A stretch of 64,000 nucleotides of DNA from Escherichia coli (GCF_016026235.1 NZ_CP065613.1), one strand, 5' to 3'. Shown: positions 20,560 to 46,497, numbered from the stretch's first letter. Made by a program: numbers and translations. The notes: generated by a model not told the origin, from the letters alone.

Positions 20560-21771
20560 ATGAAAAAAATTGCTATTGTGGGTGCCGGGCCTACGGGGAT
20601 CTACACCTTATTCTCGCTTCTACAGCAACAAACTCCACTTTCTATTTCTATCTTCGAGCAGGCTGACGAGGCCGGTGTCGGGATGCCATACAGTGATGAG
20701 GAAAACTCAAAAATGATGCTGGCAAATATTGCCAGTATTGAAATACCGCCGATTAATTGTACGTATCTCGAATGGCTACAAAAGCAAGAAGCCAGCCATC
20801 TCCAGCGTTATGGCGTTAAAAAAGAAACCTTGCACGATCGTCAGTTTTTACCGCGAATTCTGCTGGGCGAATATTTCCGCGATCAATTTTTACGATTAGT
20901 AGACCAGGCACGACAGCAAAAATTTGCAGTGGCTGTTTATGAATCATGCCAGGTTACCGATCTGCAAATTACAAATGCTGGCGTCATGCTCGCTACAAAT
21001 CAGGATTTACCCAGCGAGACGTTTGATTTAGCGGTGATTGCCACGGGTCACGTCTGGCCTGATGAAGAAGAAGCAACCAGAACGTATTTTCCCAGTCCGT
21101 GGTCAGGCCTGATGGAAGCAAAGGTCGATGCGTGTAACGTGGGTATTATGGGAACATCCTTGAGCGGACTGGATGCGGCAATGGCAGTGGCTATTCAGCA
21201 TGGTTCGTTCATTGAAGATGATAAACAACACGTCGTTTTTAACCGCGATAACGCAAGTGAAAAGCTAAATATTACGTTGATGTCGCGCACGGGTATTTTA
21301 CCCGAAGCCGATTTCTATTGCCCTATTCCCTACGAGCCCTTACACATCGTCACCGATCAGGCATTAAATGCTGAGATTCAAAAAGGTGAAGAGGGCCTTT
21401 TGGATCGGGTATTTAGATTGATAGTAGAGGAAATCAAGTTTGCTGATCCAGACTGGAGCCAACGCATAGCCTTAGAGAGCCTGAATGTCGATTCCTTTGC
21501 TCAAGCTTGGTTTGCCGAGCGCAAACAACGCGACCCATTTGACTGGGCAGAAAAAAATCTCCAGGAAGTCGAACGCAATAAACGAGAAAAACATACTGTT
21601 CCCTGGCGTTATGTCATTCTGCGCCTGCATGAAGCCGTACAGGAAATTGTTCCACATCTGAATGAACACGACCATAAACGGTTCAGTAAAGGCCTTGCCC
21701 GGGTTTTTATCGATAATTATGCGGCAATCCCTTCAGAGTCTATTCGTCGGCTGCTGGCCTTACGTGAAGCG
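20560..21771 (+). pseudogene. ydhS: FAD/NAD(P)-binding protein YdhS, 5' portion interrupted by IS1
   Basis: N-terminal GAGPTG Rossmann motif; frame broken at codon ~404 by IS1 left end. Confidence 0.85.
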
Positions 21772-21786
21772 GGTAATGACTCCAAC

Positions 21787-22290
21787 TTACTGATAGTGTT
21801 TTATGTTCAGATAATGCCCGATGACCTTGTCATGCAGCTCCACCGATTTTGAGAACGACAGTGACTTCCGTCCCAGCCTTGCCAGATGTTGTCTCAGATT
21901 CAGATTATGTCGCTCAATGCGCTGAGTGTAACGCTTGCTGATAACGTGCAGCTTTCCCTTCAGGCGTGATTCATACAGCGGCCAGCCATCCGTCATCCAT
22001 ACCACGACCTCAAAGGCCGACAGCAGGCTCAGAAGACGCTCCAGTGTGGCCAGAGTGCGTTCACCGAAGACGTGCGCCACAACCGTCCTCCGTATCCTGT
22101 CATACGCGTAAAACAGCCAGCGCTGACGTGATTTAGCACCGACGTAGCCCCACTGTTCGTCCATTTCAGCGCAGACAATCACATCACTGCCCGGTTGTAT
22201 GCGCGAGGTTACCGACTGCGGCCTGAGTTTTTTAAGTGACGTAAAACCGTGTTGAGGCCAACGCCCATAATGCGTGCACTGGCGCGACAT
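21787..22290 (-). CDS. insB: IS1 transposase InsB segment
   Basis: 167 aa ORF recognised as IS1 InsB. Confidence 0.9.
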
Positions 22291-22484
22291 CCGACGCCAT
22301 TCATGGCCATATCAATGATTTTCTGGTGCGTACCGGGCTGAGAGGCGGTGTAAGTGAACTGTAGTTGCCATGTTTTACGGCAATGAGAGCAGAGATAGCG
22401 CTGATGTCCGGCAGTGCTTTTGCCGTTACGCACCACGCCTTCAGTAGCGGAGCAGGAAGGACATCTGATGGAAATGGAAGCCAC
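22209..22484 (-). CDS. insA: IS1 InsA
   Basis: 91 aa ORF with zinc-finger CxxC..CxxC, overlaps insB as in IS1. Confidence 0.9.
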
Positions 22485-22539
22485 GCAAGCACCTTAAAAT
22501 CACCATCATACACTAAATCAGTAAGTTGGCAGCATTACC

Positions 22540-22941
22540 CGTGAAGCGGGGATCATTCATATTCTCGCCCTCGGTGAAGACTACGAAATGGAAATTAATG
22601 AGTCGCGCACCGTCCTGAAAACGGAAGACAACAGCTACTCGTTTGACGTTTTTATTGATGCCCGCGGACAGCGTCCGCTTAAAGTGAAAGATATTCCTTT
22701 CCCTGGGCTACGCGAGCAATTACAGAAAACAGGGGATGAAATCCCTGATGTTGGCGAAGATTATACGTTACAGCAACCCGAAGATATTCGTGGACGCGTA
22801 GCGTTCGGCGCGTTGCCCTGGTTGATGCACGACCAGCCTTTCGTTCAGGGACTTACGGCATGTGCAGAAATTGGTGAGGCGATGGCCCGAGCGGTCGTAA
22901 AACCTGCATCCCGTGCACGTCGGCGTCTTTCGTTTGATTAA
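22540..22941 (+). pseudogene. ydhS: YdhS 3' portion
   Basis: Frame continues from the target duplication (REAGIIHILALGEDYEMEINES...) to stop at 22941; same phase as the 5' part once IS1 is removed. Confidence 0.85.
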
Positions 22942-22952
22942 AGGTAAAGCTA

Positions 22953-23765
22953 TCAGCACTCAACAAACTGATGCTGTTCATTAAGACGATAGCGGACTCC
23001 GGCTCGAATATTGTTTTCACCTTCAATGGCGACGGCGAAGCGAACTCTTTCGCCGTCATGATATGCCAGTGCGGCGCTTCCCCCTGGCCCGAGAATAATT
23101 GAGTCGACCACGCCCGTGCTCACTACCGTTGAATTTTCACCGCTGGCAATGATGTGTACATTGTCGCCGCTGTTGGCAATTCTGGCGTTTGCGCCAAAGC
23201 TGGCGATTTGCGCCAGGTCACCATTACTGGCGACATGACACCGTTCACCCAATGTACAAACGCGTACTCGCATTCCGGTGTTCGCAATCCGACTACTATC
23301 TCCAGCGCTGCTTATCCGCGAAGAATTACCGGTTACAGCAACCCGTGCGCGTTCACCGGAGCTGCCAATGTGACTGTTAAAGCCGACACTTCCAATCCGC
23401 ACGCTATAACCCATACTGGCAATTTGCGCGGCATACCCAGCGGTTGCGATTCGGGCGTTATCCTCACAACAGCCGATGCGAGCATGATCGTCGCTGCGGG
23501 CAAACTGACTGCAAAATGGTATCTCTCCGTGGTCTGTGGCCAGTTTTTGCATAGAGGAAACTTCCTGATGCGCGAAGTTTTCATCCGCCAGCCATTTTTT
23601 CCACGCATACTCAACCAGACTCTCCGCCCAGTCCGTATATCCTTCCTCAATCAGTGCATGATGAATATCGGCATAACTACCGCCGCGTGGGAAATGGCGC
23701 AGGAACCAGCGATACATCACCGCTCCGATACGCCATTCTCGCAGGTCTGCTCGTGTAATGATCAT
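22953..23765 (-). CDS. ydhT: YdhT, last gene of ydhYVWXUT operon; repeat-containing protein
   Basis: 270 aa ORF; C-terminal two thirds made of ~7-residue repeats (xRIxxxG). Confidence 0.8.
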   Translation of the reverse strand: MIITRADLREWRIGAVMYRWFLRHFPRGGSYADIHHALIEEGYTDWAESLVEYAWKKWLADENFAHQEVSSMQKLATDHGEIPFCSQFARSDDHARIGCCEDNARIATAGYAAQIASMGYSVRIGSVGFNSHIGSSGERARVAVTGNSSRISSAGDSSRIANTGMRVRVCTLGERCHVASNGDLAQIASFGANARIANSGDNVHIIASGENSTVVSTGVVDSIILGPGGSAALAYHDGERVRFAVAIEGENNIRAGVRYRLNEQHQFVEC

Positions 23766-25282: not shown

Positions 25283-25930
25283 TCAGGGGTTCTGAAACTG
25301 CTCTACCTCGAACCATTCGCATAAGCCATAAGCCTTGCCATAGGTCATAAATCGCTCACTAAACAAGTACAACTCCGCCGTCGATGACTCCACCTGCCGT
25401 ATATCGGCATATTCAGGTGCAACATCCATCGCGGCGATCGCGGCTTCAATCTGCGCTTCCTGGAAGTAATATGGCGCTTGCATCAGCATGGCGACTTTGT
25501 AAGGACGAGGATATGTCTGGCACTCAAAACGAACGGCGTGTGCAATGGCGCGACAAATGTCCTGCTCCACAACTTGCAAAGACATCGCCGCGTAGTTTTC
25601 ACTCATGGCCTGCGTTGAGTAATAGTAATCATCCTGGCTTCCCGTCATACAAGCGATATCAGCGTAGTCTCCGTTCTGCTTAATGCTTTCCAGCAAAACT
25701 GACAGCTCCTCTTCTGCAACCGAATAGGGTGGCGAGAGAAACACGGCGCGCGCCACCAGCTGCCCAGCCGCAGAATGCTGGCGAATGAACTCTGCCAGGA
25801 TTTCAGCCGGTTCTGGTTCGGTTACCGTATCAACGGGGTGACGCATCCCCTGTAACCATTGCCGCTTCGCCTCGTCAACTTCGCTGACTTTCGCTAACGG
25901 CAATTCATCCCGATGGTTCATCTCACCCAT
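25283..25930 (-). CDS. ydhW: YdhW, uncharacterised operon protein
   Basis: 215 aa ORF; operon context. Confidence 0.75.
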   Translation of the reverse strand: MGEMNHRDELPLAKVSEVDEAKRQWLQGMRHPVDTVTEPEPAEILAEFIRQHSAAGQLVARAVFLSPPYSVAEEELSVLLESIKQNGDYADIACMTGSQDDYYYSTQAMSENYAAMSLQVVEQDICRAIAHAVRFECQTYPRPYKVAMLMQAPYYFQEAQIEAAIAAMDVAPEYADIRQVESSTAELYLFSERFMTYGKAYGLCEWFEVEQFQNP

Positions 25931-28683: not shown

Positions 28684-28892
28684 TTATTTCGCATCCTCTT
28701 CGCAAACACAGTGCTGACAATTCAGCAGCCTGATATTAAGCATTCAACTAATACGCTGCTGACTCTGTCCCCAACACCAGATATTTTCCCTAACCCGATA
28801 GTGTATGAGAAAAGATTTAACGCCGATAAACTAATCCTTTATGGTTTTATGGTTAGGAGAAAAAATAATGTGATTATTCTGAGCCCTTAACA

Positions 28893-45283: not shown

Positions 45284-46497
45284 ATGAAAAATCCCTATTA
45301 CCCTACCGCACTTGGGTTGTATTTTAATTACCTGGTGCATGGTATGGGCGTCATTTTGATGAGCCTGAATATGGCCTCGCTGGAGACACTTTGGCAGACT
45401 AATGCCGCGGGTGTCTCGATAGTTATCTCATCGCTGGGCATTGGTCGATTAAGTGTCTTGCTTTTTGCAGGATTATTATCCATCGCTTTGGTCGCCGCCC
45501 TTTTATCATGCTCGGGATGTGCTGCTATATGGCCTTCTTTTTTGGCATCCTGCAGACCAATAACATCATTATCGCTTATGTTTTTGGCTTTCTGGCGGGA
45601 ATGGCAAACAGTTTTCTCGATGCAGGCACTTATCCCAGTTTGATGGAAGCTTTTCCACGCTCACCTGGGACAGCCAATATTTTAATTAAAGCATTTGTTT
45701 CCAGCGGACAATTTTTATTACCGCTAATCATTAGCCTGTTAGTGTGGGCTGAACTGTGGTTCGGTTGGTCCTTTATGATTGCTGCAGGCATTATGTTTAT
45801 TAACGCTCTGTTTTTATACCGTTGTACGTTCCCACCCCATCCGGGTCGTCGCTTACCTGTCATAAAGAAAACCACCAGCTCTACGGAACATCGCTGTTCA
45901 ATTATCGATTTAGCCAGTTATACCTTATATGGCTATATCTCAATGGCAACGTTTTATCTGGTTAGCCAGTGGCTGGCACAGTACGGACAATTTGTTGCAG
46001 GCATGTCATACACTATGTCGATCAAACTACTCAGTATCTACACCGTGGGTTCGCTGCTTTGTGTATTTATTACCGCTCCACTCATTCGTAATACCGTTCG
46101 CCCAACAACATTACTGATGCTGTACACCTTTATCTCATTTATTGCTCTGTTTACCGTCTGCCTGCATCCCACATTTTATGTGGTGATAATATTTGCTTTT
46201 GTCATTGGTTTTACCTCTGCTGGAGGTGTTGTGCAAATTGGCTTGACGTTAATGGCTGAACGTTTCCCTTACGCTAAAGGTAAAGCTACAGGGATCTATT
46301 ACAGTGCGGGCAGTATTGCGACCTTTACTATTCCGTTGATTACGGCTCATCTGTCCCAAAGAAGTATTGCCGATATTATGTGGTTCGATACCGCCATCGC
46401 TGCCATCGGCTTTTTACTGGCACTGTTTATCGGCTTACGCAGCCGCAAAAAAACGCGGCATCACTCGCTAAAGGAAAATGTCGCTCCGGGTGGGTAA
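45284..46497 (+). pseudogene. ydiM: MFS transporter YdiM, inactivated by a 1 bp deletion frameshift near codon 66
   Basis: ORFs 45284-45643 and 45508-46497 overlap in different frames; switch lies at the MFS motif codons (LLS | RFGRRP), ~45481-45483. Confidence 0.8.

Follow-up and report, generated by a model that had tools for sequence, protein, structure and literature searches.

Results

An IS1 element flanked by a 9-bp target duplication lies within ydhS

We analyzed a 64,000-nucleotide (nt) stretch of Escherichia coli DNA (hereafter the window), which is collinear with positions 1,727,867-1,789,786 of K-12 MG1655 at about 99% identity. Within it, an insertion sequence (IS) of the IS1 family interrupts ydhS, a gene of unknown function. 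The two parts of ydhS, the element and the repeats around it are arranged as follows:

20560-21852, plus strand: 5′ part of ydhS with read-in to IS1, a fusion open reading frame (ORF) of 430 amino acids (aa); codons 1-404 end at 21771
21763-21771, no strand: left copy of the 9-bp target-site duplication, CGTGAAGCG, ydhS nt 1204-1212
21772-22539, minus strand: IS1 element, 768 bp, intact IS1F-type isoform by sequence comparison with K-12 IS1F and IS1A
21772-21794, plus strand: IRR, the terminal inverted repeat at the insB-distal end, GGTAATGACTCCAACTTACTGAT, identical to the K-12 IS1F end
21787-22290, minus strand: insB′ frame, the DDE catalytic part of the InsAB′ transposase, open (PF03400, NF033558)
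22209-22484, minus strand: insA, an ORF for a 91-aa zinc-ribbon/helix-turn-helix protein, the repressor (Pfam PF03811, PF12759)
22227-22233, minus strand: AAAAAAC (A6C) slippery site at element nt 307, predicted -1 frameshift from insA to insB′
22517-22539, minus strand: IRL, the terminal inverted repeat at the insA-proximal end, GGTAATGCTGCCAACTTACTGAT (reverse complement)
22540-22548, no strand: right copy of the 9-bp target-site duplication, CGTGAAGCG
22549-22941, plus strand: 3′ remnant of ydhS, codons 405-534 and stop, mapping to K-12 ydhS nt 1204-1605

The interval 21763-22548 resolves to the base into a 9-bp repeat, a 768-bp element and a second 9-bp repeat; two given 9-mers match by chance with a probability of about 4^-9. 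A repeat finder returns an exact repeat of 11 nt, CGTGAAGCGGG, solely because GG both opens the element and continues the right flank. We read the duplication as 9 bp because the GGT...ACC ends are common to K-12 IS1A and IS1F. Published work gives 8 or 9 bp as the rule for IS1 (PMC12428005, PMC12903888). The predicted 72-nt empty site occurs exactly in E. coli FDAARGOS_943, the nearest complete genome, and in seven of eight other genomes that encode an identical YdhS. At the unoccupied site, CGTGAAGCG is present as a single copy in FDAARGOS_943 and seven other genomes.

The two 23-nt ends of the element agree with each other at 20 of 23 positions. We scanned the window with a degenerate IS1-end pattern that allowed three mismatches, using dinucleotide-preserving shuffles as the control. 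The only two matches in 64 kb are the two ends of this element, with none expected (100 shuffles), and the window holds a single IS1 copy. A scan for promoters and terminators gave counts that were not above shuffled expectation; from it we note only a promoter-like match at 22532-22505, which overlaps IRL, the repeat in which a weak IS1 promoter has been placed (PMC12428005).

Overall, the element has the length of the IS1 family (~768 bp), imperfect inverted repeats starting with GGT(A/G)ATG, a target duplication of the 8-/9-bp class that is single in the unoccupied site, and a transposase with an N-terminal zinc ribbon and helix-turn-helix followed by an IS1-type DDE domain. The published biology of IS1 comprises a length of 768 bp, inverted repeats of ~30 bp, an A6C frameshift, an InsA repressor and 8-/9-bp duplications (PMC12428005, PMC12903888). 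The anatomy of the insertion, comprising element, ends and duplication, is thereby confirmed. An earlier note on this DNA had described a 768-bp IS1 with insA and insB on the minus strand inside ydhS; the ends, the ORFs and the family profiles all agree with it. The 9-bp direct repeat that it had reported is found as CGTGAAGCG on both sides and is single in the empty site of FDAARGOS_943, and both features whose absence it had named as refuting, the flanking repeat and the IS1 ends, are present.

The flanks on both sides of IS1 are collinear with K-12 and FDAARGOS_943. We rejected a composite IS1 transposon (Tn9-like), given the single IS1 in 64 kb and the collinearity of both flanks. Similarly, we rejected an IS1-mediated deletion or inversion, given these collinear flanks and the duplication on either side of the element. 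A preference for AT-rich targets was rejected as an explanation of the site, where local GC content is 0.58 within ±25 nt.

The insertion truncates YdhS after codon 404

The insertion point lies after ydhS nt 1212, between codons 404 and 405. The alignment to intact ydhS that the earlier note had proposed as a check upholds its assignment: when IS1 and one repeat copy are deleted in silico, an open 534-aa YdhS is restored. This reconstructed protein scores 1117.7 bits against the NCBIfam equivalog NF007381 (cut-off 783), covering positions 1-534 of 535, and carries PF13454 at residues 5-164. YdhS accordingly belongs to a family of FAD/NAD(P)-binding proteins (NF007381), and its gene has the same flanking position between ydhR and ydhT as in K-12.

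In the interrupted gene, the 5′ part reads into the element as far as a stop codon at 21850-21852. The resulting fusion ORF encodes 405 native-identical residues, followed by a 25-aa tail encoded by the IS; the count is 405 rather than 404 since Gly405 is also specified by GGT, the first codon of the IS. The C-terminal 129 residues of YdhS are lost in the fusion product, and the 3′ remnant is severed from its gene's promoter and start codon. The split ydhS is thus most likely a null allele, to judge from its sequence. No gene follows ydhS on its strand, where it runs towards the 3′ end of ydhT; we therefore expect no polar effect on co-transcribed genes downstream.

The element is an intact IS1 of the IS1F type

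A -1 shift at A6C is predicted to yield an uninterrupted 232-aa InsAB′ with no stop codon. This predicted translation scores 245 bits against NCBIfam NF033558 (transpos_IS1, IS1 family transposase; cut-off 100) and above threshold against three Pfam models (PF03811, 65.8 bits; PF12759, 95.1 bits; PF03400, 248.3 bits), with PF03400 aligned over 131 of 131 model positions.

The earlier note had called this IS1 canonical. That description holds for its length and architecture; in sequence, the element is of the IS1F type, with 91% identity to IS1A and 99.3% to IS1F. Its 768 bases differ from K-12 IS1F at five positions (99.35% identical) and from K-12 IS1A at 68 (91.1% identical). Comparing K-12 IS1A with IS1F gave 73 mismatches in our hands, the same count as published (PMC12428005). 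From these comparisons, we assign the element as an intact isoform of the IS1F type, the "type IV" of K-12.

K-12 IS1F itself (NC_000913.3 4518472-4519239) is also 768 bp long and shares the terminal repeats, 763 of 768 bases and the insA/A6C/insB′ layout. It sits next to fecIR/yjhU rather than in ydhS, and W163* interrupts its InsAB′ frame, which is open in the window copy. Four of the five differences between the two copies alter the transposase, as H34P, T52K, W163* and S208L in K-12 IS1F, with H34P falling in the zinc-ribbon region. At all four of these positions, the window IS1 has the residue found in IS1A. By this comparison, K-12 IS1F (insB7, annotated as a pseudogene) is a decayed copy.

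The "consensus" IS1 of K-12, IS1A/IS1E (the IS1R type), shares with the window IS1 its length, gene layout, frameshift site at nt 307 and class of target duplication (8-9 bp; PMC12428005). It differs from the window IS1 at 68 of 768 bases and 14 of 232 InsAB′ residues. The ends also differ: IRL reads GGTAATG in the window copy and GGTGATG in IS1A/IS1E, and IRR ends in ...CTTACTGAT rather than ...CTTATTGAT.

K-12 IS1F has been reported to be essentially immobile at native transposase levels (PMC12428005). Its movement requires a high-level supply of InsAB′, under which it surpasses all other non-consensus types in mobility (PMC12903888). W163*, H34P, T52K and S208L together are a simple candidate explanation for this immobility. 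The precedent of movement only under over-supply of InsAB′ (PMC12903888), and the co-residence of several IS1 types on a plasmid of the relative FDAARGOS_943, fit a model in which the window IS1 was mobilized in trans by the transposase of other IS1 copies. We consider this model unlikely. The window IS1 is complete, with InsA, A6C, an open 232-aa InsAB′ and IS1A residues at the four lesion positions of K-12 IS1F, including residue 163; moreover, IS1 transposase acts preferentially in cis (PMC12903888), and identical IS1 copies occupy many different loci across many genomes. Among complete E. coli genomes, many harbor 100% identical copies of the window IS1 at loci that are unrelated. The natural insertion in ydhS shows that the IS1F type does move. 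Support for the element's ability to transpose is indirect, coming from occupied and empty sites in near-identical genomes and from identical copies at many loci.

The insertion is probably recent and is found in three public assemblies

Among 5,426 complete RefSeq E. coli genomes, none carries IS1 at this ydhS site; seven of them have IS1 in ydhS, and these represent two other events. The exact 430-aa fusion ORF occurs in only three NCBI assemblies (GCA_900449985.1, GCA_001907395.1 and GCA_002467115.1), and intact, identical YdhS in 3,088 blocks of the same collection. Over the 7.3 kb compared, the 4.56-Mb contig of GCA_900449985.1 (UGFA01) matches the window at every base, and the fusion protein is on record as STL96227.1, labeled Escherichia coli. 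In the two further assemblies, the contigs end inside the IS, as in short-read contigs. The left junction is thus present in three separate assemblies and is therefore independently supported, not an assembly artefact. Two other searches were less informative. A look-up of the 117-aa ydhS remnant for the right junction was non-specific, returning 2,026 blocks, mostly from frameshifted or fragmented assemblies. An exact scan for the 38-nt junction in species-representative genomes gave no hits; with a single genome for each species in the set, this result is uninformative.

IS copies are well known as places where assemblies go wrong, the two junctions occur together in one long contig only, and this contig has 1-bp deletions in ydiM and fadK that are possibly long-read errors. 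By these tokens, a repeat collapse or mis-join could have produced the apparent insertion in a ydhS that is really intact. We give this explanation almost no weight: an exact 9-bp duplication of a sequence that is single in the empty site is a signature of transposition, not of a mis-join, and two further assemblies contain the identical left junction between ydhS and IS1.

Over ~62 kb, 34 substitutions and a few indels separate FDAARGOS_943 from the window. A single synonymous base distinguishes its ydhS from the reconstructed gene, and comparison of the two reveals no second disabling change in the reconstructed ydhS. The insertion is probably recent, because the site is empty in a near-identical genome, the duplication is perfect, ydhS has no second lesion and the element has no private changes. 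The earlier note had also held the insertion to be recent, on the ground that the ydhS frame resumes in phase after the element. Recency stands on the grounds just given; the phase carries no information on age, because 768+9=777=3x259 for every such insertion.

The lineage resembles an IS-rich, decaying genome of the enteroinvasive E. coli (EIEC)/Shigella type, in which an old insertion might have become fixed across a whole pathovar, as Shigella-type pseudogenes have. Such an age is highly improbable here: the site is empty in a genome only 34 substitutions away in ~62 kb, the fusion ORF is limited to three assemblies, and the duplication, the element and the ydhS remnants are all undecayed. 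The species-representative scan (one genome per species) gave no junction hits.

The insertion lies beyond the distal end of ydhYVWXUT

The gene facing ydhS is the following:

22953-23765, minus strand: ydhT, intact, last gene of ydhYVWXUT and convergent with ydhS

The stop codons of ydhS (plus strand, 22941) and ydhT (minus strand, 22953) are separated by 11 bp. The earlier note had placed ydhS just upstream of ydhYVWXUT, a geometry that has to be reversed, as ydhS converges with the last gene of the operon. The insertion lies beyond the distal end of ydhYVWXUT, about 6 kb from its FNR-dependent promoter, which is past ydhY. There, the minus strand carries a perfect FNR box, TTGATAACGATCAA, at 28906-28893 in the ydhY promoter; FNR control of ydhYVWXUT from a site at -42.5 is documented (PMC3688515, citing Partridge et al. 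2008). Because the insertion is not just upstream of the operon and is ~6 kb from its promoter, we expect no direct promoter effect on ydhYVWXUT.

The convergent transcripts of ydhS and ydhT form an overlapping "excludon" in MG1655 (PMC12288877, Table 1). In the window, insA of IS1 and ydhT are on the same strand and point in the same direction. Two interactions are conceivable, each with low probability: FNR-driven transcription could run on from ydhYVWXUT into IS1, reading it in the sense direction, and IS1 could remove the antisense ydhS transcription over ydhT.

The region upstream of ydhY also has a change of its own. A private 8-bp tandem duplication, AACCATAA repeated, lies at 28838-28845 and begins 38 nt downstream of the FNR box. 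It would fall at about +4 to +19 of the predicted ydhY transcript if FNR is centered at -42.5. This duplication upstream of ydhY is absent from K-12, FDAARGOS_943 and seven other genomes.

ydhS is disrupted independently in other lineages

At least four independent IS1-associated disruptions of ydhS can be distinguished, at nt 367, 1212 (the window), 1232 and 1372. In E. coli 042 (a Swiss isolate, CP042934), IS1 lies after nt 1372 with a 9-bp duplication, TCCCTGGGC, and is 99.0% IS1A-like. In 5CRE51 (CP021175), it lies after nt 367 with an 8-bp duplication, AAAATTTG, and is 96.4% IS1A-like. Both differ from the window event in position, isoform and lineage, and are thus independent of it. GCA_047158565.1, which surfaced in the remnant look-up, has an IS1 end at ydhS nt 1232 and a rearranged upstream side. 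In all three cases, as in the window, insA is antisense to ydhS. A mobile element also interrupts the same gene in a sublineage of sequence type 131 (ST131; clade C2 L3), with blaCTX-M-15 integrated in ydhS (PMC9334617).

These repeated hits could mean that the insertion was selected because loss of ydhS is advantageous, or that ydhS is a preferred IS1 target. In favor of an adaptive or hotspot-driven origin are the four or more independent IS1-associated disruptions, the ST131 integration (PMC9334617) and the phenotype of a K-12 ydhS knockout, which is less susceptible to killing by the Agrobacterium type VI secretion system (T6SS) and is complemented in trans (PMC7012810). On balance, we judge such an origin quite unlikely. 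IS1 is so abundant, at 59,352 chromosomal places in 4,970 genomes, that a few hits are expected in any dispensable 1.6-kb gene. The insertion sites in ydhS are all different, so that there is no sequence hotspot, and the target site in the window is not AT-rich. Moreover, three other private disruptions lie in the same 62 kb (in lhr, ydiM and fadK), fitting a general relaxation of selection.

The nearest genome is IS-rich and carries invasion-type plasmid genes

The earlier note had hinted at Shigella by pointing to the many IS1 copies of Shigella genomes. The record label, E. coli (STL96227.1), does not support that name; the hint survives in that the nearest complete genome is IS-rich and has invasion-type plasmid genes. 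The plasmid of FDAARGOS_943 (NZ_CP065616.1) is a 155-kb, IS-riddled IncFII mosaic that carries ipaH9.8, ospG, ospC2, sepA, virK, capU and an IpaH-like remnant. In the 150 kb of NZ_CP065616.1 inspected, we found no ipa/mxi/spa entry region. From its gene content, this appears to be an invasion plasmid that has decayed or recombined; the strain is labeled only "E. coli". F4-like fimbrial genes and type IV pilus genes are also present on this plasmid.

The chromosome of FDAARGOS_943 carries ISEc60 (the PGAP name of an IS4-family element) at no fewer than 38 places. ISEc60 is rare, occurring in 267 of the 5,426 complete E. coli genomes; carriers include, among others, the O96:H19 EIEC strain CFSAN029787, which also has it on its pINV (PMC10470518). 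The window lineage is plausibly an EIEC-like clone under IS expansion, a view drawn from this close relative rather than from the source genome.

A second private insertion in the window is an ISEc60 inside lhr (1221-7141). It occupies 3604-4897, splits the helicase gene, and is absent from FDAARGOS_943 and K-12, where the site is empty. This copy is 1,292-1,294 bp long, its ends read CTGAGG(A/G)ATCCCCAGAAAA, and its target duplication, GGGGCGCACTCC, spans 10-12 bp. A private AGA-to-TGA change at 4401 turns codon 239 of 396 in its transposase gene into a stop. Its target, GGGGCGCACTCC (3593-3604 / 4897-4908), is nearly alike to GGGGCGTGCTCC, the target of a copy in the ftsH-folP spacer of FDAARGOS_943, and the likeness between the two copies compared reaches a few bases past the repeat on both sides. 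This similarity suggests a strong target-sequence specificity of ISEc60.

Smaller lesions are scattered through the rest of the window. Relative to both K-12 and FDAARGOS_943, ydiM (45284-46497) has a 1-bp deletion of G at ~45481, in the non-homopolymer context TATCC-ATCGC, that shifts the frame into a stop at codon 120 of 404. Exact look-ups of the frameshifted ydiM product in independent assemblies returned either nothing or partial genes at contig edges only. Similarly, fadK (57192-58891) is frameshifted relative to the same two genomes by a 1-bp deletion of G at ~57461 (GTATT-AATCA). The ydiM and fadK deletions may each be genuine or may stem from errors in long-read assembly. ydiP, encoding an AraC-family regulator (53516-52605, minus strand), has a premature stop at codon 142 of 303, which predates the split of the two genomes because it is common to FDAARGOS_943 (annotated "internal stop"). 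Two further changes are in-frame differences in repeat length: at 25319, ydhW lacks 21 bp (3 x 7) that are present in FDAARGOS_943, and at 10681-10686, ydhP has gained a 6-bp GCGCTG repeat relative to K-12 and FDAARGOS_943.

Discussion

Our data make it very probable that an intact IS1 of the IS1F type entered ydhS by simple transposition, in a sub-lineage of an IS-rich, EIEC/Shigella-like clone and after the split from FDAARGOS_943. We met no evidence that contradicts simple IS1 transposition. In the proposed sequence of events, which is established for IS1 and extended here to this copy, a -1 ribosomal frameshift at A6C would produce the InsAB′ transposase. InsAB′ would bind both terminal repeats and join the element to staggered target cuts 9 bp apart, and repair of the gaps would leave the 9-bp duplication CGTGAAGCG. 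ydhS would thereby be split after codon 404, with 405 native residues plus a 25-aa tail as the sole translatable product. The time order of these events, and their selective neutrality, are inferred.

Several points weigh against this history. The immobility of K-12 IS1F makes autonomous movement of the IS1F type less certain, a comparison qualified by the absence of its nonsense codon from the window copy. The right-hand junction is present in one assembly only, and the three assemblies that share the left junction may be one strain sequenced repeatedly. As to the consequence for the gene, we infer the loss of function of truncated YdhS from its sequence; a PDB sequence search with YdhS gave only insignificant matches to the Rossmann motif (E >= 0.09), and hence no solved homologue by which to judge the C-terminus.

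A bolder proposal is that inactivation of ydhS recurs under selection in gut E. coli, instead of being neutral and accidental. We hold this to be very doubtful. If it were true, the multiple hits in ydhS would reflect a gain from loss of YdhS, with lower T6SS susceptibility as a candidate advantage.

The event itself is of an ordinary, already known kind, and is already present in public assemblies. Taken alone, its significance is small: it adds a further case of IS1 knocking out a dispensable gene whose function is unknown. What our analysis adds is likewise small, namely the assignment of the isoform, a corrected geometry and reasoning, and the lineage context. The insertion does provide a natural example of a recently moved, intact IS1F-type element, complementing the 2025 laboratory work that reported K-12 IS1F to be immobile. 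Its exact junction also offers a clean clonal marker, which tags a sub-lineage within an IS-rich, EIEC-like clone of E. coli. Together with the neighboring ISEc60 insertion in lhr and the point lesions in ydiM, fadK and ydiP, the IS1 insertion in ydhS points to ongoing gene decay in this lineage.

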